Shown here piece by piece: positions 8,597 to 53,812 of a stretch of 64,000 nt of DNA (the stretch's first letter is position 1; every line of letters starts with the position of its first letter). Under the pieces are notes generated by a model that made no database searches, was not told where the DNA came from, and saw only the letters and a list, made by a program, of their open reading frames with translations. The stretch is taken from sequence record PZ019085.1, one strand, 5' to 3'. Origin of the DNA: a phage. A program made the translations under genes and the position numbers.

Positions 8597-9468
8597 TATT
8601 GAGCGACCCCAATTTTCTGAGTTGAGATAATTTTAACTGCTGAACGTAATCCAATAATATCGGATGTAATCGTCATAGTAGCAAAGTTGTTAATAATACT
8701 AAAGCTAATATTAGCAATCTCGTCGGTTTCATCTACATTACCAACTCGCATTACTGCAAATTCGGTAGAAAGAACTTCTGAGTTAATTGTATCTATTAGA
8801 ATATTTATTTCACATGTTTTTATTTTTCTACCGTCAGCGGATTGGCATGTAACAAGCAATTTAGCCATGTTATAATCTGTGCGATAAAAGAGAGGAATAG
8901 AAACTGTGTTTCCTGTAAGACTCCAAGTCCCATCGACAGGAGATTCTTTCTGCCCAAACATGCTATCAGTAGAATAATTCCATACCGAAGTTGGCCCATT
9001 AATTTCAACACAACGAAGAACAACATGGGTATAAGGGGTGGAAATAACAAGATTATTAAGAACACCTTTAATCGAACCATCAGTTACTTGGATACTTAAA
9101 GGATTGTTAACAGAAATAGACCCATTAGAGTTTATGAATTCTACAGAGTCACCTAATTCAGGACGGTCAATAATAACAATCACACCGCCATCAGAAGCAT
9201 CAATATCATGCATCGTGCCGGGTTTAATAGGAGTTTGATAATCGACCGCCTTTCCTTTTTGATAATAGCCTGTGGCATGAATAGTTTGACCTGTGGGCCC
9301 GGTTCCATCTGCTACAGCCATTTTACGTTGATCGCCAAATGCATTGTAAATAGCGTTGATATCGTCATTTATTTTATTACCACCGTCGAATAAGATATCA
9401 CCTGTTGAGGCATTACCAATTTCGCCGGTATCGATTAATTGTTTAGGAGTTTGCTTAAAAAATGCCAT
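8596..9468 (-). CDS. 9: baseplate wedge / long tail fibre connector (T4 gp9-like)
   Basis: 290-aa ORF MAFFKQTPKQLIDTGEIGNAS...; synteny; start ATG at 9466-9468. Confidence 0.85.
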   Translation of the reverse strand: MAFFKQTPKQLIDTGEIGNASTGDILFDGGNKINDDINAIYNAFGDQRKMAVADGTGPTGQTIHATGYYQKGKAVDYQTPIKPGTMHDIDASDGGVIVIIDRPELGDSVEFINSNGSISVNNPLSIQVTDGSIKGVLNNLVISTPYTHVVLRCVEINGPTSVWNYSTDSMFGQKESPVDGTWSLTGNTVSIPLFYRTDYNMAKLLVTCQSADGRKIKTCEINILIDTINSEVLSTEFAVMRVGNVDETDEIANISFSIINNFATMTITSDIIGLRSAVKIISTQKIGVAQ

Positions 9469-10545: not shown

Positions 10546-13500
10546 CTAATTTAACCTGTGGTGGATTCACGGGGTCTCTTGGATTTCCTACATTATCGAT
10601 TAACCGTTGTTCAACCAAATCTCTAAATCTAGAGAATGTTGTTCCGGACGCATCAAATAATGGGCTCATCAGTTTACGTCGTTCCGATGGAAGTTGACCT
10701 TGAAATATGGAGTTATTGTTTTCAGCGTTATAATCTTCAGGCAATGGATAATCTTGACCAGCCATAGGGCCTATTTCATATATCGCTTTACCTGTAATAG
10801 GGTCAAACTCAACATTTCCTTGTGGGTCTAATTTAGCCACTCGGTCTGCATATTTAGTCGGTAATCCAGAATCCCACTTATAGTTTTTGTATTTATTAAT
10901 AATGGTTTCAACATGTTTAAGTGTTAATCCGGTGTTAATAAACATTGTGAGAAGGGTAATTGCGATAAATCCAAATCCAACCGGATGAACAAAACGTAAT
11001 ACGTCTGATTTCCAACGAGACGATGGAAGTTTAGATTTAATCTTCATTACGTAGTATGCTCTACCACGATTTATGTAATCGATGTTGTTCTGAGAAAGCT
11101 CTTTACCTTTAATACCACGAACAATTTCACCTTCAAAACCAGGGAGTCTTTCAGCTTTAACTTCCTGTCCTTGGATTAAACGACCTAAGAGGTTGTGAAT
11201 TGTTACAGTCCATTGTAATTTACCTTTAGAGTAACTTCTCTCGATATACGTCACATTACAACGTCCTGTAGCGGTGTATATGGTTTGTCCGACCAAATCT
11301 TCTGTCAACGAATCAGATTCAATGATGATATCATATTCGGTCCCGGAACTAGATTCAATTTCAATTTCAACATCTTCGTTATAAAGCACTTTAAACAAGA
11401 ATTTATATGATGCTTCAGTTCCTTTAGTTGAATAGAAGTCATAACTTCTTGATTCAAAGAAACGAGACACTAAATCGCGTTTTTCGGCGTTTAAGTAAAT
11501 GTTTCGTTTATAAATCTCAGACCATAAATATTCCCACGCATGTTCTTCTCGCGGATATTTATTTTTAATAAGATTTAAAAGGTTGTTATAATGGGTCCCA
11601 TAGCCGTCAGAAAGATACTGAATATAAGCCTCACAGAATGCTTCGAAGTTTGTATTATCTAAAAGATAAGACTCCGGCATCATTGTAGTGAGCAATGGAC
11701 GTAAATCTGGGTCCGCGATACCATTCTCTTCCACAGGAGTCCATGTGGTATCTTTTTCTTGGTTTTGTAACGACGCTGTTAAGAATATATTAGTAGGCTT
11801 CCAAATTATAGAAACATTATCTCTAACACGGTAACTAAAATCATAATAAGAAATAATCTCACCTGATGCTTTATAGAAAATCATGCCAGATGCATATTTT
11901 TTAAATCCAGTGAAATCTACGTTAGGCATCACTATTGTACAGTCACCGTCCTTCCAATATTCGTGAACTTCACGGTCTGAAGAACTAAGTGGATGATTCT
12001 CAATAACCTTAGTGTAAAGTAAATCAGAATAAATTACAACGGCCTTGTCTGAGTTATTAATCCAGCAGCGAGTACCAGACTTTCTAGAATAACTAAAGAA
12101 TGGCTCAGCATAGTATTCCATCGGTTGAGGAGTGAACGATTCCCATTGAGAGTCTTCAGTTGAAATAAATGCCATCATATGATAATGTTTATCAGCCAAC
12201 CATTCGCGAGGATACTCATATTTAACAGCACCGATTAAACCGTACTTGACTTGTGTTTTTGGGTCATCAACAATATCCGATTCTAGAAATTTAAAATTAC
12301 TAGATGAAATAGATAACTCAACACCATCAGTAGACATACTGGTGTACCCAGGTTCAATACGACGGCGTTCTTCTTCAGTATTACCAAACACACGTTTAAA
12401 TGTGCCAGCATCATGGTCTAGAACGTAAATACCCTTATCAACAGAATCAACAATAGGAGTTGTCCTCGGGTCGTCATTAAGATTAACAACTTCACCAATA
12501 ATCAGTGCAAATATTTTACCACCGACAGAATCCATTTTATAGCAAACTGCCTTAGGGTTACCTGTGATGTTAAATGTTTCTTGTTCAAACAAACGTTCGG
12601 AATATGTCGGAGATAACGGGTCTGAATCAATAGGGGCATTACTAGTTTTAATAAAACGAACTTTATCTCGAGCAGCAACGTATACATAATCGTCATTGCA
12701 AACGATAGCTTCTGCAATACGTGATACGTTAGCAGGTAATGATGCATAGTTGCCAAATATTTCTACGTCAAATCCTAAATTTAACTGGTCGCCAATTTTA
12801 GCAAATGTTATATCTTGAGAACTAAATCTCACATCATCAGCAGACCAACGAACGTCTGTTGATTTACGGCCGTAAAATAATTTATCATACCCAAGAACAT
12901 ACGTGGTGTAATCTGTCTGGTAATACACTGTTCTTGATATAGGGTACCCTACACGGTCATTAAACAATTTAACCGATTTCCAGGTTTGTCCCTTATCATT
13001 AGAGACTTTAACAACAGGCTGATACCGTTCAAACAAATAAAGAATTCCTTCGGATTCCATCAAATAAACACGGTTTATATCATGACACACCTGTTGAATC
13101 GAACCTTGAATTTCATGATACTCATTTTCGCCAATAATGAAATTTTTAATAGATGAAATATCCGCATAAGCAGGGCTAAATTGGAACGATTCATTCATTA
13201 GAGCTGCCATTATAGTGTCGTTATTAAAATCGACATAAGCCATGTTGTTATTTGTAAATTTTTCTCTAATAAAAGTGTTAGCCAATTGCATTTCAATCAT
13301 ATGTTGAAATGTATACGCGTTAGTCTGAAACGATTCAAATATTTCAGTATATACCCAATCAGACCTCTCGAAGCCTTCAGCGGCAGTTGATACACGAATA
13401 ATATAAGAAGTTAATGGGTCTAAGCTATTTTCGAACCAGTTGCTATTAGGAGTATATCCTAAATTTATCCATCTGTAGCTGGCAGGGGGAATTATTTCCC

Positions 13501-43988: not shown

Positions 43989-44255
43989 ATGAAAAAACTA
44001 GTAATTGGTTTATTCGCAGTAATGATGGCGTTCTCTGTTGGTGCTACCATGGGTGCAGGAGCTGGTGGTAACCAGTCTTCTGGGCCTTCTAATGGTTCTG
44101 TAAATGCATCACATTCTCAGGGTATTGAGAACATTAAATCAAGCTATATTAATAGCACGGCTGGACAAGCAACTGAAGCATGGTCAAAGGGCCGAGTAGT
44201 TACTCACTCCGTATTCTGTGATATGCCTAATTATGTTGCTAAGTGCGATAAGTAA
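43989..44255 (+). CDS. secreted Gly/Ser-rich small protein
   Basis: 88 aa; signal peptide MKKLVIGLFAVMMAFSVGA then GAGAGGNQSSGPSNGS; two Cys near the C-terminus. Confidence 0.6.
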   Translation: MKKLVIGLFAVMMAFSVGATMGAGAGGNQSSGPSNGSVNASHSQGIENIKSSYINSTAGQATEAWSKGRVVTHSVFCDMPNYVAKCDK

Positions 44256-44260
44256 ATGTG

Positions 44261-44280
44261 GGGACCTTCGGGTCCCTTTA
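44261..44280 (+). terminator. hairpin, probable terminator
   Basis: GGGACC-TTCG-GGTCCC followed by TTTA. Confidence 0.5.
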
Positions 44281-44307
44281 GGGGGTTAAAATATTTTTAA
44301 AAAAGTA

Positions 44308-44345
44308 GTGTACATGCTTTTAGGATATGTTATTATAGACCTATC
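44308..44345 (+). promoter_or_regulatory. early promoter cassette (PeSL-like)
   Basis: GTGTAC...GGATATGTTATTATAGACCTATCGAAACGAAATGAG. Confidence 0.5.
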
Positions 44346-45783: not shown

Positions 45784-45822
45784 GTTTACAAGGTCTATGG
45801 TTATGTTATTATAGACCTATCA
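45784..45822 (+). promoter_or_regulatory. early promoter with inverted repeat (PeSL-like cassette)
   Basis: GTTTAC then GGTCTATGGTTATGTTATTATAGACC palindrome. Confidence 0.55.
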
Positions 45823-46369: not shown

Positions 46370-46394
46370 GCTTTACCCAAGGACGGGTTATAAT
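46370..46394 (+). promoter_or_regulatory. middle-type promoter (MotA-box-like + TATAAT)
   Basis: CGCTTTA (one mismatch to the T4 MotA box TGCTTtA) then 13 nt then TATAAT. Confidence 0.45.
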
Positions 46395-46429: not shown

Positions 46430-47425
46430 ATGAGCATTACATCTGATGCGGTAAAACATGAAATTAACGGTTTATGTGCTTCACAGATTAAAGTGTGGTT
46501 TAAAGACCATAATGATCGCAGAGCACTTAATTATGAGCAAATTGCTATCCAAGTTCATCAATTACTGACTAGTAAATTTGATTTTCATATGCCATCTGAA
46601 ATCTATACTAATCTGCCGCGAGCACTTATTAAAGCGTGTAAAGGTTATGGAAAATCAATGGCCGATGGAATCTTCAGCGCGCTGAATAAACTTAACGTTC
46701 TGTCGATGATTAACTCTAACAATATCCTGCGTAATCTAGGACGTACTGATTTGTTCGGTCGTGAACAGTGTAAAATGCCTTTGAAATGGATTGTTGCTCA
46801 TCTTAACGAGAACCAAACACGTTTTCTGGCCGTATCAGCACGCTTACAAATGGGCCTAGATCGTCAGATGAACTTTAAAACTCATCCACGTTATTCAGGT
46901 TCAACAGACTTTTATAAATGTGAGCTTCAAAAGGTTGCAGGTAAAACTGTCTTGGTAGTTCGTGTAACGTTTGAAGGACGACGTCAAGGATATTTTGACC
47001 TAATCGGCTCTGGTCTCAAACATTGTGGATTTATCGACGAAGTTGATATCAAGCGAGACGGCACTGGATACCGTATTGGATATGTTTGCACTCTTAAAGA
47101 AGAGATTTCGGGACCAGCACCAGGACTAAAAGATGTTAGATATAAAGACGAGCTCGTTGAAGAAATAAAAGAAGTTGAATATGATATCAACCAAGAAGAT
47201 GCTCTTAAAGACCTTATTGACGAACTAAACCAAGACGTTATTCCGGTTCAGAAATTTGAATCAAAACATGCTGAGCAAATCAAATACTTTGAAGCTTTGA
47301 TTAACGAACTTAATGTAACTATTCAACAGACTGATGATGAAATCTCACGATTAGCAGGCTTAAATGGTAAAAATAAAACGGAACGAGCTAATCTTATTCA
47401 AGTAGTAAAACTTCTTAAGGAATGA
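46430..47425 (+). CDS. hypothetical protein with C-terminal coiled coil
   Basis: 331-aa ORF; Cys-containing N-terminal domain; acidic C-terminal heptad region ...EEIKEVEYDINQEDALKDLIDELNQ... Confidence 0.6.
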   Translation: MSITSDAVKHEINGLCASQIKVWFKDHNDRRALNYEQIAIQVHQLLTSKFDFHMPSEIYTNLPRALIKACKGYGKSMADGIFSALNKLNVLSMINSNNILRNLGRTDLFGREQCKMPLKWIVAHLNENQTRFLAVSARLQMGLDRQMNFKTHPRYSGSTDFYKCELQKVAGKTVLVVRVTFEGRRQGYFDLIGSGLKHCGFIDEVDIKRDGTGYRIGYVCTLKEEISGPAPGLKDVRYKDELVEEIKEVEYDINQEDALKDLIDELNQDVIPVQKFESKHAEQIKYFEALINELNVTIQQTDDEISRLAGLNGKNKTERANLIQVVKLLKE

Positions 47426-47454
47426 TGTACAACCAGGGATGGTTGGAGTATAAT
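47425..47454 (+). promoter_or_regulatory. sigma70-like promoter
   Basis: ATGTAC, 18-bp spacer, TATAAT; spacer motif GGATGGTTGGAGTATAAT repeated at 48438-48456. Confidence 0.5.
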
Positions 47455-47480
47455 AAATTTTTCAACATGAGGAATATAAA

Positions 47481-48455
47481 ATGGCTTTTATTACACGTAG
47501 AGAACTTATCAAAGAATTTACCTCGAACGCATATACCCCAGGACCTAATCCTATCCGTATGCCTGTAAAGACTCCTGAAGAGATTGAGGAAATCTGTTCA
47601 TATTATGGGATTAATTCTCGTATGTTTACTCAATTTGAATGCATTACTAACACACCCGTTAAAGAGTTCATTAAAAATGGTGAGTTCAGCCGTTTATTAG
47701 CCAAACAGAAACTTCGTAATTTTTGTATCGGCGGTGAAGGACAATATTTCGCTAAACAGTTCCGAAATAACCTTAACAATCTGATGGCCATTGCTTCTCG
47801 TATTCGTCCTCAAGCAATTAACATGAAACATTTGAAATATACTTACGATAAGTTAGAAATCATGGTTATCAGTGAGAACGAGTTCACTCTTACATATAAT
47901 CCTAAGAATGATAACGTTGCTCGTGTATTCCACCAAGCACTAGAAGTTTTAGGCGATAATATCCACCAGATTAAAGCGATTTATTCTCGTGAGCTTAATA
48001 TTATTGACCCTATCAAGAATAAGGGCAATATCGCTATCCAGGCTCGTGTATCTATTGGTAAAAAGGTTCCTGCGCCATGGTGGCACAAAGACTCTGAATA
48101 CTATCAAAATCTTAAAAAGGAAAATGCATTGTTTGAAGCATCGCTTACTGGGACCCCAATTGAACAGGCCGAAGTCCTAAGTGCTTATTCTACTTCGGGT
48201 AAATCAATGTTTAAAGGTTTGCCAAATGTGTGCAAACTGTCTGCAGTAAAACTAAATGTTTCTAATGACCTTCTTCCGGCCGAAGATTACCATTACAATC
48301 AAATCAAGGCCACTATGGACCAACTGTCTGTTGAACTTGACAAAGCACAAGCTAAGCTTCGTGATGCTCAAAGTGTTGTAACGAATCTCCAGTTGCAGTA
48401 TTCTAAACTTTTTAACGCAATGAATGCATTAAAATCATGGATGGTTGGAGTATAA
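47481..48455 (+). CDS. hypothetical protein with C-terminal coiled coil
   Basis: 324-aa ORF; C-terminus ...QLSVELDKAQAKLRDAQSVVTNLQLQYSKLFNAMNALKSW. Confidence 0.6.
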   Translation: MAFITRRELIKEFTSNAYTPGPNPIRMPVKTPEEIEEICSYYGINSRMFTQFECITNTPVKEFIKNGEFSRLLAKQKLRNFCIGGEGQYFAKQFRNNLNNLMAIASRIRPQAINMKHLKYTYDKLEIMVISENEFTLTYNPKNDNVARVFHQALEVLGDNIHQIKAIYSRELNIIDPIKNKGNIAIQARVSIGKKVPAPWWHKDSEYYQNLKKENALFEASLTGTPIEQAEVLSAYSTSGKSMFKGLPNVCKLSAVKLNVSNDLLPAEDYHYNQIKATMDQLSVELDKAQAKLRDAQSVVTNLQLQYSKLFNAMNALKSWMVGV

Positions 48456-48456
48456 T
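48427..48456 (+). promoter_or_regulatory. possible promoter inside the 3' end of the upstream gene
   Basis: GGATGGTTGGAGTATAAT, same motif as 47438-47454, overlapping the last codons of ORF 47481-48455. Confidence 0.4.
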
Positions 48457-48484
48457 GAATCTATCTTAACGAGAGGAAAATATT

Positions 48485-49435
48485 ATGACACGTTCACATT
48501 ACATTGAATACTTTGCCGGTCTTATCGCTAACGTTCATGCCCAACGTGCTTCTGGTTCATTAGGATTTGATGTTCCACATCGAGTTGTAGTAAGTGGTAT
48601 TCTTCGAGATTTTGGTACATACACAGGCCAAGAAAATCATATCTGTAAAGATACTCAAAATGCGTATTCTCATTCATTAGGGACACTGCTTCAATGGTTC
48701 AAACGTTCTCGTTTATTATCTTCTACTGTGGCTCGTGATAACATTAAAAACTTTATGAAGCCCAGCTTTATTAAATCTGTGACATCTAAAACCGATTTAG
48801 TTGAATTTACTATTATTAACGATGTTAAAAAGACTCATTTGGCCGATTGGTTATCTACCATTCCTGAAACTAAATTTGCTGATAAATTTGCTTGTGAATT
48901 CAATAACCAAGTGAATATGCTTTTTAAACATTCTCGTAAATTATTCACAGGCGGCGATGATCGTACAAATAAAGTTCATGTTAAAGATTGGGTTACTGCA
49001 GTATTCAAACCAACCGGTAATGGTAACGCATCATTGTCAATTGATATCCAGGTTCCTTATTACTACTCACGTAATCTCGGCACCATGAAAGCTGAAGAAA
49101 TTAAGAAGCACAATAAAACCATTCGTTCGCTGTCTTATAAACTTCGCATGATGTTACAGACTATGGATGTTGTTGAAATGTTCGACGAAACCGAAGATAA
49201 TGGTTCAATGTTATTCAGTTCTCGAATTAAAATTAAACTGAAGAACCCTAACGAGTATAAGCCTAAGCCTATTAAAGAGCCTAAAGCAGAAAAAGTTGAT
49301 AACTTAAGAGAAGAACGCGAATATCTCAAATCCCGTCTGAAAGAAGTCGAAGCCCAGATTGCAGAACAAACTAAATCGTTAAAAGCTCTGAATGCGAAAG
49401 CGGACGGTTTAAGAAATGCCATTGAGGTTTTATAA
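48485..49435 (+). CDS. hypothetical protein with C-terminal coiled coil
   Basis: 316-aa ORF; C-terminus ...KVDNLREEREYLKSRLKEVEAQIAEQTKSLKALNAKADGLRNAIEVL. Confidence 0.6.
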   Translation: MTRSHYIEYFAGLIANVHAQRASGSLGFDVPHRVVVSGILRDFGTYTGQENHICKDTQNAYSHSLGTLLQWFKRSRLLSSTVARDNIKNFMKPSFIKSVTSKTDLVEFTIINDVKKTHLADWLSTIPETKFADKFACEFNNQVNMLFKHSRKLFTGGDDRTNKVHVKDWVTAVFKPTGNGNASLSIDIQVPYYYSRNLGTMKAEEIKKHNKTIRSLSYKLRMMLQTMDVVEMFDETEDNGSMLFSSRIKIKLKNPNEYKPKPIKEPKAEKVDNLREEREYLKSRLKEVEAQIAEQTKSLKALNAKADGLRNAIEVL

Positions 49436-49740
49436 TGAAACTACGTCTTTTAGAGGATATTGATATGAGCACTAATCACAGCTTGGTTAAGTTTATTGAC
49501 GATAGTTCAAAGATTGAATTTGTTCAGCGAGATAAAATCCACAGTGAAGAAGAGTTCGTTCCTCCGGCATGGAACGAAATAATGAAAATGGTTGAACGAC
49601 GTGAAAATGCTGCCAAATCGGCAGCAAAACATCCATGCCCGGAATGTGGAACTATCCAAGTCCAACTGGTTAACTGGACCACTGATAACTTGAAATTGAA
49701 ATGCCGTAAATGCTTCCACAAATTTGAGAGAACATTATAA
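49435..49740 (+). CDS. zinc-ribbon protein, hypothetical
   Basis: 101 aa; CPECG...(17)...CRKCFHKF four-Cys arrangement. Confidence 0.6.
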   Translation: MKLRLLEDIDMSTNHSLVKFIDDSSKIEFVQRDKIHSEEEFVPPAWNEIMKMVERRENAAKSAAKHPCPECGTIQVQLVNWTTDNLKLKCRKCFHKFERTL

Positions 49741-50153
49741 TGAGATATAGCCTTCGTTGTTTTATTGCAGCTTTAGTTTTTGCCATCATTCCATTCATTT
49801 GGAACAGCCAGAATACTTACATGGAAACTAAAGTAATTCCTGTGGAGGTAGTGGAATTAATCTCAGGCCAATCTACAGGAAAATATTCTAAATTAGAATT
49901 TATTGCCGTCTATAAAGATGAGCAAGGACGAGTTTTTGACAGGCATGTATCACCGTCGTTTTATACGCTTCTGAATAAAGGTGATACGATAGCTATAGAA
50001 ATTCGTGAGATGGATATCAAACAAACTACTAAAGATAACTTGATTTGGTTCTTTGGTACAGTGTTGTTGGTTTCTATCTGTATCACAGGTTTTATTACAT
50101 GTATTGTATTTGGCATTGCATATTTAATTGATGAAAGGAAAAATAATGTTTAA
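49740..50153 (+). CDS. membrane protein, hypothetical
   Basis: 137 aa; N-terminal TM LRCFIAALVFAIIPFIW and C-terminal TM LIWFFGTVLLVSICITGFITCIVFGIAYLI. Confidence 0.6.
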   Translation: MRYSLRCFIAALVFAIIPFIWNSQNTYMETKVIPVEVVELISGQSTGKYSKLEFIAVYKDEQGRVFDRHVSPSFYTLLNKGDTIAIEIREMDIKQTTKDNLIWFFGTVLLVSICITGFITCIVFGIAYLIDERKNNV

Positions 50154-50409
50154 AGTGTACGGGTATGACTCTACTATTCATAAATGCATTTATTGTGATA
50201 ATGCGAAACGATTGCTGACTGTTAAGAAACAGCCATTCGAATTCATTAATGTTATGCCAGAAAAAGGTGTGTTCGATGATGAGAAAATTGCTGAGCTTCT
50301 GGTTAAGCTTGGACGTGAATCACAAGTCGGATTGACTATGCCTCAAGTGTTTGCTCCTGATGGAAGTCACATTGGTGGATTTGACCAACTACGAGAATAT
50401 TTTAAATGA
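50146..50409 (+). CDS. nrdC: thioredoxin/glutaredoxin NrdC
   Basis: 87 aa MFKVYGYDSTIHKCIYCDNAKRLL...; near-identical to T4 NrdC as recalled; active-site CIYC. Confidence 0.95.
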   Translation: MFKVYGYDSTIHKCIYCDNAKRLLTVKKQPFEFINVMPEKGVFDDEKIAELLVKLGRESQVGLTMPQVFAPDGSHIGGFDQLREYFK

Positions 50410-50762
50410 CATATTCATTAAATCTTAAAGATTTCCAAGATGTATACGAAGTTTGTGCCAATGAACTTGGTCCTGATGCTCCAACTATTATTGAAGTTTT
50501 AAATGTGCTCCCTTCATCATTAGCTTACGAAGCCAAATCATGGGGTTGGAACGACACTGTCGTTCGTGATGACCTTTACGTCCTGATGAACGATATGATG
50601 GTTAAAAAGTCAGAACCGGTTGCACCAATGGTTACCATTACCGTTGAAGAATATAATCGCCTGCAAGCCATTGAAGAGCTTCTGTGGAACATTGAATGTG
50701 ACCTGCCGTCAGGGCTAGAATCCTGGATTGATTATGAAGAGCTCAATAAACTCCGGGGTTAA
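50406..50762 (+). CDS. hypothetical protein (nrdC.1 position)
   Basis: 118-aa acidic ORF. Confidence 0.6.
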   Translation: MTYSLNLKDFQDVYEVCANELGPDAPTIIEVLNVLPSSLAYEAKSWGWNDTVVRDDLYVLMNDMMVKKSEPVAPMVTITVEEYNRLQAIEELLWNIECDLPSGLESWIDYEELNKLRG

Positions 50763-51524: not shown

Positions 51525-51998
51525 ATGTTATTATCAGGCGCAAAATATAAAGAAGAAAAACAAAAATTTTATGACGCACAGAACGGTAAGTGTCCTATTT
51601 GCCACCGCGAATTAGACCCTGATGTTCAAGGTAACCATCTTGACCACGACCATGAATTAAACGGGCCAAAAGCCGGTAGAGTTCGTGGATTACTCTGTAA
51701 TCTGTGCAACGCAGCAGAAGGTCAAATGAAGCATAAGTTCAACCGTTCTGGTCTTAAAGGCCGTGATGTCAACTACCTAGAATGGCTTGAATCTCTTCTT
51801 GATTATTTGAAACAAGATTATTCTGATAATAATATCCATCCTAATTTTGTTCCAGACAAAACTAAAGAGTTCTCAAGACTAGGTAAAGATGAAATGATGG
51901 CTGAGATGCTTCAAAGAGGATTTGAATATAATGAATCTGACACTAAAACACAGTTAATAGCTTCATTCAAAAAGCAGCTTAGAAAGAGTTTAAAATGA
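51525..51998 (+). CDS. 49: endonuclease VII (Holliday junction resolvase)
   Basis: 157 aa MLLSGAKYKEEKQKFYDAQNGKCPICHRELDP...; near-collinear with T4 endo VII as recalled. Confidence 0.95.
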   Translation: MLLSGAKYKEEKQKFYDAQNGKCPICHRELDPDVQGNHLDHDHELNGPKAGRVRGLLCNLCNAAEGQMKHKFNRSGLKGRDVNYLEWLESLLDYLKQDYSDNNIHPNFVPDKTKEFSRLGKDEMMAEMLQRGFEYNESDTKTQLIASFKKQLRKSLK

Positions 51999-53812
51999 AA
52001 ATTGAAAAAGAAATTGAAGGATTAATTCATAAAACTAATAAAGATCTTTTGAACGAGAATGCTAATAAAGATTCTCGTGTTTTTCCAACTCAACGGGACC
52101 TTATGGCTGGTATTGTGTCTAAACACATTGCCAAAAATATGGTCCCGTCTTTTATTATGAAAGCGCATGAAAGCGGAATTATCCATTTCCACGATATTGA
52201 TTATTCCCCTGCTCTTCCATTTACTAATTGCTGTTTAGTAGATTTAAAAGGGATGCTTGAGAATGGATTTAAGCTTGGTAATGCGCAGATTGAAACTCCT
52301 AAATCAATCGGTGTTGCTACTGCAATTATGGCACAAATTACTGCACAGGTTGCTTCTCATCAATATGGTGGAACGACTTTTGCGAATGTAGATAAAGTAC
52401 TTTCTCCTTATGTTAAACGCACCTATGCAAAACATATCGAGGATGCAGAAAAATGGCAAATCGCCGATGCACCGAATTATGCTCAATCTAAAACAGAAAA
52501 AGACGTATACGATGCATTCCAAGCTTATGAATATGAAGTAAATACTCTCTTTAGTTCAAACGGGCAAACGCCTTTTGTAACAATTACATTTGGCACGGGA
52601 ACTGACTGGACTGAACGAATGATTCAGAAAGCAATTCTGAAAAATCGTATTAAAGGTCTTGGTCGTGATGGAATAACTCCTATTTTCCCTAAGCTTGTTA
52701 TGTTCGTCGAAGAAGGTGTTAATCTTTACAAAGACGATCCGAACTATGATATTAAGCAGCTTGCTCTAGAGTGCGCAAGCAAAAGGATGTATCCTGACAT
52801 TATTTCGGTTAAGAATAATAAAGCTATTACTGGTTCTTCAATTCCAGTTTCTCCAATGGGTTGCCGTAGTTTCTTGGGCGTATGGAAAGATTCGACTGGT
52901 AATGAAATTCTTGATGGACGTAATAATCTTGGTGTTGTAACGCTGAATCTTCCTCGAATTGCGTTAGATTCTTATATTGGAACACAATTTAACGAACAGA
53001 AATTTATTGAATTATTCAATGAACGTATGGATTTGTGTTTTGAAGCTTTGATGTGTAGAATTAGTTCTTTAAAAGGAGTTAAAGCAACTGTTGCTCCTAT
53101 TCTTTACCAAGAAGGTGCATTCGGGGTTCGTCTTAAACCGGATGATGATATAATTGAGTTATTTAAAAACGGTAGAAGTTCAGTGTCTTTGGGATACATT
53201 GGTATTCACGAATTGAATATTCTTGTCGGTCGTGATATTGGACAAGAAATTTTAACTAAAATGAATGCTCGTCTTAAGCAGTGGACCGAAAGAACCGGTT
53301 TTGCTTTTAGCTTGTATTCTACTCCTGCTGAAAACCTTTGCTATCGCTTCTGTAAACTTGATACTGAAAAATATGGAAGTGTAAAAGATGTTACTGATAA
53401 AGGATGGTACACTAATAGTTTCCATGTTTCAGTAGAAGAAAATATTACTCCGTTTGAAAAGATTTCTCGCGAAGCGCCATATCATTTCATTGCGACAGGC
53501 GGTCACATTTCTTATGTTGAACTTCCTGATATGAAAAATAACCTAAAAGGTCTTGAGGCTGTCTGGGATTATGCTGCACAACATTTAGATTATTTTGGTG
53601 TTAATATGCCAGTAGATAAATGTTTTACGTGTGGAAGTACCCATGAAATGACTCCGACTGAAAACGGATTTGTTTGTTCAGTTTGTGGAGAAACTGATCC
53701 TAAAAAGATGAACACAATAAGAAGAACATGCGGCTATTTGGGAAATCCGAACGAACGCGGATTTAATCTCGGTAAAAATAAAGAAATAATGCATAGGGTT
53801 AAACACCAATGA
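51995..53812 (+). CDS. nrdD: anaerobic ribonucleoside-triphosphate reductase
   Basis: 605 aa; C-terminal glycyl-radical motif RRTCGYLG and Cys cluster CFTCGS...CSVCG; uninterrupted ORF. Confidence 0.95.
   Translation: MKIEKEIEGLIHKTNKDLLNENANKDSRVFPTQRDLMAGIVSKHIAKNMVPSFIMKAHESGIIHFHDIDYSPALPFTNCCLVDLKGMLENGFKLGNAQIETPKSIGVATAIMAQITAQVASHQYGGTTFANVDKVLSPYVKRTYAKHIEDAEKWQIADAPNYAQSKTEKDVYDAFQAYEYEVNTLFSSNGQTPFVTITFGTGTDWTERMIQKAILKNRIKGLGRDGITPIFPKLVMFVEEGVNLYKDDPNYDIKQLALECASKRMYPDIISVKNNKAITGSSIPVSPMGCRSFLGVWKDSTGNEILDGRNNLGVVTLNLPRIALDSYIGTQFNEQKFIELFNERMDLCFEALMCRISSLKGVKATVAPILYQEGAFGVRLKPDDDIIELFKNGRSSVSLGYIGIHELNILVGRDIGQEILTKMNARLKQWTERTGFAFSLYSTPAENLCYRFCKLDTEKYGSVKDVTDKGWYTNSFHVSVEENITPFEKISREAPYHFIATGGHISYVELPDMKNNLKGLEAVWDYAAQHLDYFGVNMPVDKCFTCGSTHEMTPTENGFVCSVCGETDPKKMNTIRRTCGYLGNPNERGFNLGKNKEIMHRVKHQ

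Follow-up and report, generated by a model that had tools for sequence, protein, structure and literature searches.

Putatively paralogous NrdC.6-, NrdC.5- and NrdC.3-type proteins of a Mosigvirus-like phage as candidate counter-defence proteins

The early-gene neighbourhood around nrdC in T-even phages is hyperplastic and contains single-gene inhibitors of bacterial defence systems, including NrdC.1, which inhibits Septu (bioRxiv 10.1101/2025.11.20.689424), and gp49.2, which inhibits OLD (PMC13096335); both are small proteins unrelated to those described below. For T4 NrdC.5, a T4 clone with a deletion including nrdC.5 failed to form plaques on E. coli ECOR17 and likewise on MG1655 into which dsr1 of ECOR17 had been introduced (PMC9391042), and T4 nrdC.5 supplied in trans restored plating on dsr1 cells (Srikant et al. 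2022, PMC9391042). A functional analogue, the SPbeta-like phage protein DSAD1, blocks DSR2 by direct binding (PMC10973363, PMC10981675, PMC11087589). DSAD1 and NrdC.5 are likened by function alone, as phage proteins acting against a SIR2-domain defence that depletes nicotinamide adenine dinucleotide (NAD+). Unlike NrdC.5, DSAD1 belongs to another phage lineage and targets DSR2, not DSR1, and direct binding is a feature of DSAD1 that is putative for NrdC.5. Here, we scrutinized positions 46430 to 50153 of a 64,000-nucleotide (nt) stretch of phage DNA (sequence record PZ019085.1, hereafter the window), where genes encoding three consecutive proteins of 316 to 331 amino acids (aa), a zinc-ribbon protein and a membrane protein are colocated upstream of nrdC. 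We lean towards reading the three larger proteins as paralogous counter-defence (host-range) proteins.

The window DNA was 96 to 97% identical to Mosigvirus genomes, and by this similarity its source is a Mosigvirus-like T-even phage. All five open reading frames (ORFs, named here by their first position) listed in a preliminary description of the locus, made from the DNA alone, were present as given and lay on the + strand. That description considered the proteins not obviously similar to T4 proteins and the region small-ORF territory in T4. Neither view held, as all five ORFs have T4 orthologs (25 to 57% identity) and T4 carries four genes of 275 to 340 aa at the same position (nrdC.3 to nrdC.6, encoding 308, 333, 340, and 275 aa). 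ORF 46430 (46430-47425, 331 aa) is the counterpart of T4 nrdC.6, ORF 47481 (47481-48455, 324 aa) of nrdC.5, ORF 48485 (48485-49435, 316 aa) of nrdC.3, ORF 49435 (49435-49740, 101 aa) of nrdC.2, and ORF 49740 (49740-50153, 137 aa) of nrdC.7. Compared at the protein level, the five-gene block is shown to be the Mosigvirus form of T4 nrdC.6-nrdC.5-nrdC.3-nrdC.2-nrdC.7. Unlike the window, in which nrdC.7 follows nrdC.2, T4 also has nrdC.4 and nrdC.1; comparison with the T4 locus found no nrdC.4-type copy and no nrdC.1 homolog in the window. The locus is therefore not new, its genes being T4 ORFs that were known before, though mostly uncharacterized. All five window proteins were assigned to PHROGs without an assigned function.

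Relatedness of the three proteins

ORF 47481 matched Pfam DUF7235 (PF23882; gathering score, 30 bits) with 407.5 bits (expectation value, E, 5e-122) over profile positions 1 to 307 of 307; T4 NrdC.5 scored 420.6 bits (E 5e-126) against the same model. The position of ORF 47481, between nrdC.6-type and nrdC.3/4-type genes and upstream of nrdC, was the same in T4, Shfl2, VR5, and dhabil. Sharing the Pfam and PHROG (2351) families, locus position, similar size, and a C-terminal coiled coil with T4 NrdC.5, ORF 47481 is by its profile match a member of the NrdC.5/DUF7235 family. It differs in sharing no more than 25% identity with T4 NrdC.5 (E 2e-9), and the anti-Dsr1 phenotype is that of the T4 allele (PMC9391042). 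ORF 48485 was 57% identical to T4 NrdC.3, weakly matched T4 nrdC.4, and matched phrog_1435 (E 1e-104, positions 1 to 333 of 334), to which T4 NrdC.4 also belongs; all of its homologs carry the precomputed assignment PF26897. ORF 46430 was 30% identical to T4 NrdC.6 over 270 aa (BLASTP, E 2e-18) and matched phrog_2257 (E 1e-127), with PF26899 as its precomputed Pfam family, placing it with NrdC.6. The latter two ORFs are orthologs of T4 proteins (NrdC.3, NrdC.4, and NrdC.6; Y04O, Y05B, and relatives) that the databases hold as separate families (PF26897 and PF26899; PHROGs 1435 and 2257), which the present analysis joins with NrdC.5.

From their shared size and architecture, the three proteins had been suggested to form a diversified family. 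Pairwise BLASTP among the window proteins gave no match (E >1), and hhalign comparison of shallow, close-homolog alignments was negative, a result uninformative for lack of diversity (effective number of sequences ~1.6), the protein-homolog search having returned only relatives of at least 56% identity, too little diversity for profiles. The locus was gathered from Tequatro-, Mosig-, Dhaka-, Karam-, Jiaoda-, Teguna-, and Lazarusvirus genomes and family alignments were built locally; scans of IMG/VR yielded 7 and 3 loci only. To remove the coiled coil, the C-terminal 75 aa were trimmed before profile comparison. Reversed and column-shuffled profiles served as nulls, and the unrelated neighbours nrdC.10 and nrdC.11 as controls.

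The nrdC.3 and nrdC.4 types clustered by BLAST and were joined by hhalign, group against group, at a probability of 97.6% (E 5e-12). When 1.84 billion representative proteins were searched exhaustively by HMMER with the nrdC.3 profile, a protein of the nrdC.4 type was recovered at E 5e-6; every cluster returned was of the nrdC.3 or nrdC.4 type, and there were no relatives beyond T-even phages usable for function. The merged nrdC.3/4 profile matched the nrdC.5 profile at 77% (E 2e-5) untrimmed and at 86% (E 5e-6, 166 collinear columns) once the C-terminal 75 aa were trimmed. Hence, it is the globular body, rather than the coiled coil, that carries the signal. Across all nrdC.5-type links made without the coiled coil, probabilities were 86 to 96% (E 5e-6 to 1e-8). 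A bridge profile of five single-copy Karam- and Jiaodavirus members matched both nrdC.3/4 (94 to 96%, E 6e-9 to 1e-7) and nrdC.5 (92%, E 7e-7). PHROG cross-matches also occurred between groups, NrdC.3 and NrdC.4 sharing phrog_1435, and two proteins outside the profiles were recognized, gp94 of Yersinia phage fHe-Yen9-01 (93%) and orf117 of Acinetobacter phage Konradin (67%).

Direct profile comparisons of the nrdC.6 type gave E 0.002 to 0.27. The bridge protein EnA02_0082 matched the nrdC.6 group at 85% (E 6e-6), and nrdC.6 with one bridge added matched nrdC.3/4 with one bridge added at 95% (E 7e-8, 252 columns), bridge-augmented comparisons ranging from 76 to 95%. A superfamily profile devoid of coiled coils scored 38.4 against nrdC.6 (E 7e-5, 63%, ~92 columns) vs. 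10.8 for reversed and 11.8±1.3 for column-shuffled nulls. Overall, nulls scored 10 to 20 and real comparisons 38 to 58, while the controls nrdC.10 and nrdC.11 gave E 0.05 to 0.8 throughout. We conclude with high confidence, from profile similarity, that the nrdC.3, nrdC.4, and nrdC.5 types and the single-copy genes form one family, and consider it likely that the nrdC.6 type belongs to it as well; by these comparisons, ORF 46430 is the most divergent member. The suggestion of a diversified family was thus upheld for the first three types and, more weakly, for nrdC.6.

It is highly unlikely that the three proteins are unrelated, resembling one another only in length and a C-terminal helix, with a profile signal arising from compositional or coiled-coil bias. 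The empty BLASTP and shallow hhalign comparisons would agree with this, as would the three separate Pfam families (PF23882, PF26897, and PF26899) and the absence of a Foldseek cross-match between families. However, the signal persisted or strengthened without the C-terminal 75 aa, was collinear over 130 to 200 columns, and exceeded both the nulls and the neighbouring controls, and independent single-copy homologs bridged the groups. With models of such poor quality, the lack of a Foldseek match carries no information.

The AlphaFold2 (AF2) models of ORFs 48485 and 46430, made with only close homologs in the alignment, were of low confidence (predicted local distance difference test, pLDDT, 55.5 and 48.9). 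Structure prediction had been proposed earlier as a check for a common fold; the order of elements ran parallel, but Foldseek gave no cross-family match. In both models, the order was near-identical, comprising five N-terminal helices, two helices at ~118-143, a beta-hairpin at ~162-180, a helix, a linker, and the C-terminal helix or helices. ORF 48485 was modelled as an N-terminal helical bundle (aa 1-85, pLDDT >80), an alpha/beta middle, a disordered linker, and a C-terminal helix (275-315); ORF 46430 as a helical N-terminal and central region, a beta-hairpin (~162-179), a linker, and interrupted C-terminal helices. Foldseek against BFVD returned the proteins' own orthologs and weak matches to uncharacterized proteins of ~300-370 aa from other T4-like genera. 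Against the PDB, it returned nothing meaningful (best match ARPC2, E 0.02, template modelling score 0.22), and a PDB sequence search gave no match.

Four parts appeared to be common to the family, namely a helical N-terminal and central region, a variable alpha/beta region (aa ~150-240), a flexible linker, and a C-terminal coiled-coil helix. The helical region carried the family motifs S-R-L-L-S..x..L-x-N-F and F-x-x-N-x-x-x-L-x-x-x-[AS]-[SA]-[RK]-L. Relative to T4, conservation was highest in the central helices (aa ~61-150) and in the C-terminal helix and lowest in aa ~151-240, with 16 to 20% identity in the nrdC.5 and nrdC.6 types. A long, charged coiled coil had been attributed to each protein. 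Heptad periodicity upheld the coiled coil in ORF 47481 (48279-48443, + strand, aa ~267-321; heptad score 0.90 vs. a shuffle 95th percentile of 0.65) and in ORF 48485 (49307-49429, + strand, aa 275-315, a helix in the AF2 model; 0.88 vs. 0.68), but not in ORF 46430, where the C-terminus was helical in the AF2 model but interrupted. The segment was charged in ORF 48485 alone, with 43% charged residues in the last 60 aa vs. 20% and 30% in the other two paralogs. In ORF 47481, the coiled-coil segment was the part best kept relative to T4 (50% identity vs. 16 to 32% elsewhere). The C-terminal helix of ORF 48485 was 70% identical to T4, vs. 46 to 61% elsewhere in the protein, and its columns 272-316 were nearly invariant across alleles.

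Copy number, gene coupling, and upstream elements

Mapping of the family across T4-like genera gave one to four copies per genome: four in Tequatrovirus, three in Mosigvirus and Dhakavirus, and one (possibly two) in Karam-, Jiaoda-, Teguna-, and Lazarusvirus. The family was confined to T4-like phages (Straboviridae), among them phages of Klebsiella, Enterobacter, Yersinia, and Acinetobacter. Most simply, the ancestor would have had one copy, which then underwent tandem duplication in T-even phages of E. coli. Family members were 25 to 57% identical between the window and T4, vs. 77 to 98% for the neighbours nrdC.10, nrdC.8, nrdC, and nrdD. Unannotated C-terminal remnants, comprising only the final ~45 codons, were found in two genomes, one from an nrdC.3-like gene in ACG-C40 (NC_019399.1, 47515-47652, 84.8% identity) and the other from an nrdC.6-like gene in Pinarejo (PP925831.1, 50021-50155, 60% identity), which suggests recent deletions in which the conserved region of the C-terminal helix was spared.

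In Karam-, Jiaoda-, and Tegunavirus, a conserved ORF of ~260 aa preceding the member was considered as a further member and rejected (hhalign E 0.05 to 0.8). This ORF (~255-270 aa, 48 to 65% identical between genera) lies directly upstream of the single-copy member, or ~1.5 kb upstream in Tegunavirus (11295-12083 in locus L016, 11648-12439 in L017, 11702-12469 in L018, and 4003-4782 in L020 of the Jiaoda-, Teguna-, and Karamvirus set).

Downstream of the three paralogs, ORF 49435 was 51% identical to T4 NrdC.2. Its cysteine knuckles, CPEC (68-71) and CRKC (90-93), are separated by 18 aa and were kept in all homologs, in agreement with the four-cysteine zinc ribbon first described; matches to Zn_ribbon_8 (E 0.017) and the YnfU family (E 7e-4) were below cut-offs. 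ORF 49740 was 41% identical to T4 NrdC.7 (E 5e-26), and two hydrophobic segments (~1-23 and 99-132, Kyte-Doolittle) flanking a soluble domain of ~75 aa are consistent with the two transmembrane segments ascribed to it. TAATG stop/start overlaps join 48485 to 49435 and 49435 to 49740, and the last three genes thus form a translationally coupled unit. An nrdC.2-type gene directly follows a family member, with a 1-4 nt overlap, in five genera (Mosig-, Tequatro-, Dhaka-, Karam-, and Jiaodavirus), and this conserved pairing suggests that paralog and zinc ribbon are probably partners, either physically or in function. The order member, zinc ribbon, membrane protein also occurs in Karamvirus EnA02 (NrdC.7-like match, E 2e-23), unlike in T4, where nrdC.7 sits between nrdC.8 and nrdC.6 (8902-9303 in the T4 locus, L002). 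Given the same nrdC.2-nrdC.7 order in EnA02 and the window, the window order may be ancestral.

A multi-component system had been raised as an alternative to a diversified family, and this applies at most to the last three genes, in which the overlap of member and zinc ribbon recurs in five genera; it does not extend to the three paralogs together. That all five genes encode a single machine, such as a membrane-anchored host-takeover or exclusion complex, is distinctly improbable. Such a machine would fit the tight tandem on one strand, the stop/start overlaps of the last three genes, the recurrence of the member-zinc ribbon-membrane protein order in Karamvirus, and coiled coils that could mediate hetero-oligomerization. 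However, the paralogs vary from one to four between genera while the zinc ribbon is always single, a separate promoter-like cassette precedes each paralog, and rates of divergence differ greatly among them. In addition, nrdC.7 is located elsewhere in T4 and was missing from the loci examined in Dhakavirus and Jiaodavirus, and T4 nrdC.5 supplied in trans is by itself enough against Dsr1 (PMC9391042).

Promoter-like elements preceded each of the three paralogs, all on the + strand. Those upstream of ORF 47481 (47426-47454, TGTACA-17-TATAAT) and ORF 48485 (48429-48456, TTAAAA-16-TATAAT, overlapping the 3' end of ORF 47481) were early-promoter-like and sigma-70-like, with 10 of 12 matches each. 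The element upstream of ORF 46430 (46370-46394, GCTTTA-13 nt-TATAAT) had no canonical -35 and was not listed by the sigma-70 scan; its spacing presumably resembles that of a T4 middle (MotA-box) promoter. The total number of promoter-like sites in the region was not above chance (23 vs. 21.5±4.8 in shuffled sequence). One cassette was nevertheless common to five gene starts in the locus, consisting of a -35-like element, TGGTT....TATAAT, GAGGAA, and then ATG, which makes the earlier remark that each ORF has its own promoter reasonable. Ahead of ORFs 47481 and 48485, the 18-nt GGATGGTTGGAGTATAAT was identical (47437-47454; 48439-48456). Elsewhere in the locus, ATGTTATTATAGACCTATC was identical ahead of nrdC.10 and nrdC.8 (44326-44344; 45802-45820). 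Both repeats could have arisen by promoter duplication or could provide microhomology for the recombination, duplication, and deletion seen at the locus.

Counter-defence as the probable role and its alternatives

Given a T4 member with an anti-Dsr1 phenotype, fast divergence, copy-number flux, and separate early-promoter-like cassettes, counter-defence is the best supported reading of the three proteins. The locus is a variable accessory region with proven inhibitors nearby, and its family members diverge fast and vary in presence and absence, as expected of anti-defence genes. The genes would be dispensable accessory genes, transcribed early and each individually. ORF 47481 would retain an anti-sirtuin role like that of T4 NrdC.5 against the NAD+-depleting Dsr1 defence, and ORFs 46430 and 48485 would neutralize other host immunity proteins or other variants. 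No invariant catalytic-type residues were seen across the family, so stoichiometric target binding by a coiled-coil oligomer, not catalysis, would be the mode of action, with the variable alpha/beta region setting target specificity. The NrdC.3-type protein (ORF 48485) would work together with the zinc-ribbon protein NrdC.2, to which, and in this phage also to NrdC.7, it is translationally coupled.

A housekeeping-like or host-takeover role, directed at host transcription, the nucleoid, or nucleotide metabolism, with Dsr1 rescue as an indirect effect (e.g., through removal or masking of the trigger or altered NAD+ metabolism), seems to us rather unlikely. Many T4 host-takeover genes do have cassettes like these early-promoter-like ones, genes of nucleotide metabolism (nrdC, nrdD, and tk) surround the locus, and a direct NrdC.5-Dsr1 interaction is not reported in the literature. 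Against this, T4 nrdC.1 to nrdC.11 were all classed as non-essential on K-12 (HIDEN-SEQ), insertions in the orthologs carrying no fitness cost, and no enzymatic or nucleic-acid-binding domain was detected in the family. Between close relatives, the family shows extreme divergence, fluctuating copy number, and loss of genes, a pattern typical of an arms race and not of conserved takeover functions, and adjacent genes encode proven defence inhibitors.

Several points weigh against counter-defence by a paralogous family. Functional data exist for one member only, T4 NrdC.5, and what they show is a phenotype rather than direct binding or a mechanism; at 25% identity, the anti-Dsr1 specificity may have been lost from ORF 47481. 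In one conditional comparison of the HIDEN-SEQ supplement, nrdC.3, nrdC.4, nrdC.6, nrdC.2, and nrdC.7 had no significant fitness effect. A literature search returned no paper on the function of nrdC.2, nrdC.3, nrdC.4, nrdC.6, or nrdC.7 or on the mechanism of NrdC.5. Profiles of PADLOC and NCBIfam gave no match above cut-off, and no PDB relative offered a mechanistic clue either; searches of Pfam, PDB, PADLOC, NCBIfam, Foldseek, and HMMER found no relatives of known structure or activity outside the family. The common fold is inferred from profiles and the order of secondary structure, not from superposed structures. For ORF 46430, the C-terminal coiled coil was without statistical support (heptad periodicity 0.60 vs. 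a shuffle 95th percentile of 0.68), and the nrdC.6 link, weak in direct comparison (E 0.002 to 0.27), is carried mainly by ~90 residues and is partly bridge-dependent.

As a tentative extension of the counter-defence reading, which we regard as possible rather than probable, NrdC.3 to NrdC.6 would constitute a modular, diversifying family of binders in which a conserved helical core and an oligomerizing coiled coil display a hypervariable alpha/beta module. Through repeated duplication and divergence, this module would be adapted to capture different sensors or effectors of bacterial immunity. In its ancestral, single-copy state, the protein would have formed an obligate pair with NrdC.2. If so, E. 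coli T-even phages would carry a paralogous repertoire of immune antagonists, comprising anti-Dsr1 and at least three further specificities, and the family would be an entry point to new defence systems and their inhibitors.

Neighbouring genes and implications

Consistent with the position first described for the five genes, nrdC lies directly downstream, with an ATG at 50146 and a product 92% identical to T4 NrdC. The mechanical gene call (50128-50409) used a TTG start to give 93 aa and overlapped the end of ORF 49740; the ATG at 50146 (87 aa, collinear with T4 NrdC) is the likelier start. ORF 50406-50762 (118 aa) follows nrdC and contains a 44-aa stretch 84% identical to a 56-aa Shfl2 ORF annotated as "antitoxin from a toxin-antitoxin system". 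It showed no similarity to T4 gp49.3 or to T4 gp49.2, a homolog of the T6 anti-OLD protein, and was ruled out as an anti-OLD homolog. Further downstream, nrdD (51995-53812) is a single unbroken ORF of 605 aa, whereas T4 nrdD is split by a group I intron carrying I-TevII. Between nrdC.11 and nrdC.10 (43989-44336 region), an 88-aa ORF encodes a signal-peptide-like N-terminus (MKKLVIGLFAVMMAFSVGA...) and has downstream of it a hairpin rich in G+C with a T-run (44271-44287), then a promoter-like cassette (44309-44336). We take this terminator and early-promoter unit to resemble the mobile "promoter-early stem-loop" cassettes of T4-type phages.

Many GenBank records label nrdC.2 to nrdC.11 homologs "thioredoxin", and one carries "Mur ligase domain-containing protein". 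Profile matches backed neither label and both were disregarded; the "thioredoxin" labels look like name propagation from the neighbouring nrdC or from the nrdC.x naming itself.

Three points extend current annotation: the joining of these families into one, the conserved pairing with a zinc ribbon, and the prediction of nrdC.3, nrdC.4, and nrdC.6 as anti-defence genes. Four "orphan" T4 families (nrdC.3, nrdC.4, nrdC.5, and nrdC.6), together with single-copy genes of other T4-like phages, appear to be one expanded family. Given the proven anti-Dsr1 phenotype of one member, the other paralogs are candidate inhibitors of other defence systems, and the coupled zinc-ribbon partner suggests a two-protein unit. 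The family members are plausible host-range determinants of T4-like phages, of relevance to phage therapy and host-range engineering.

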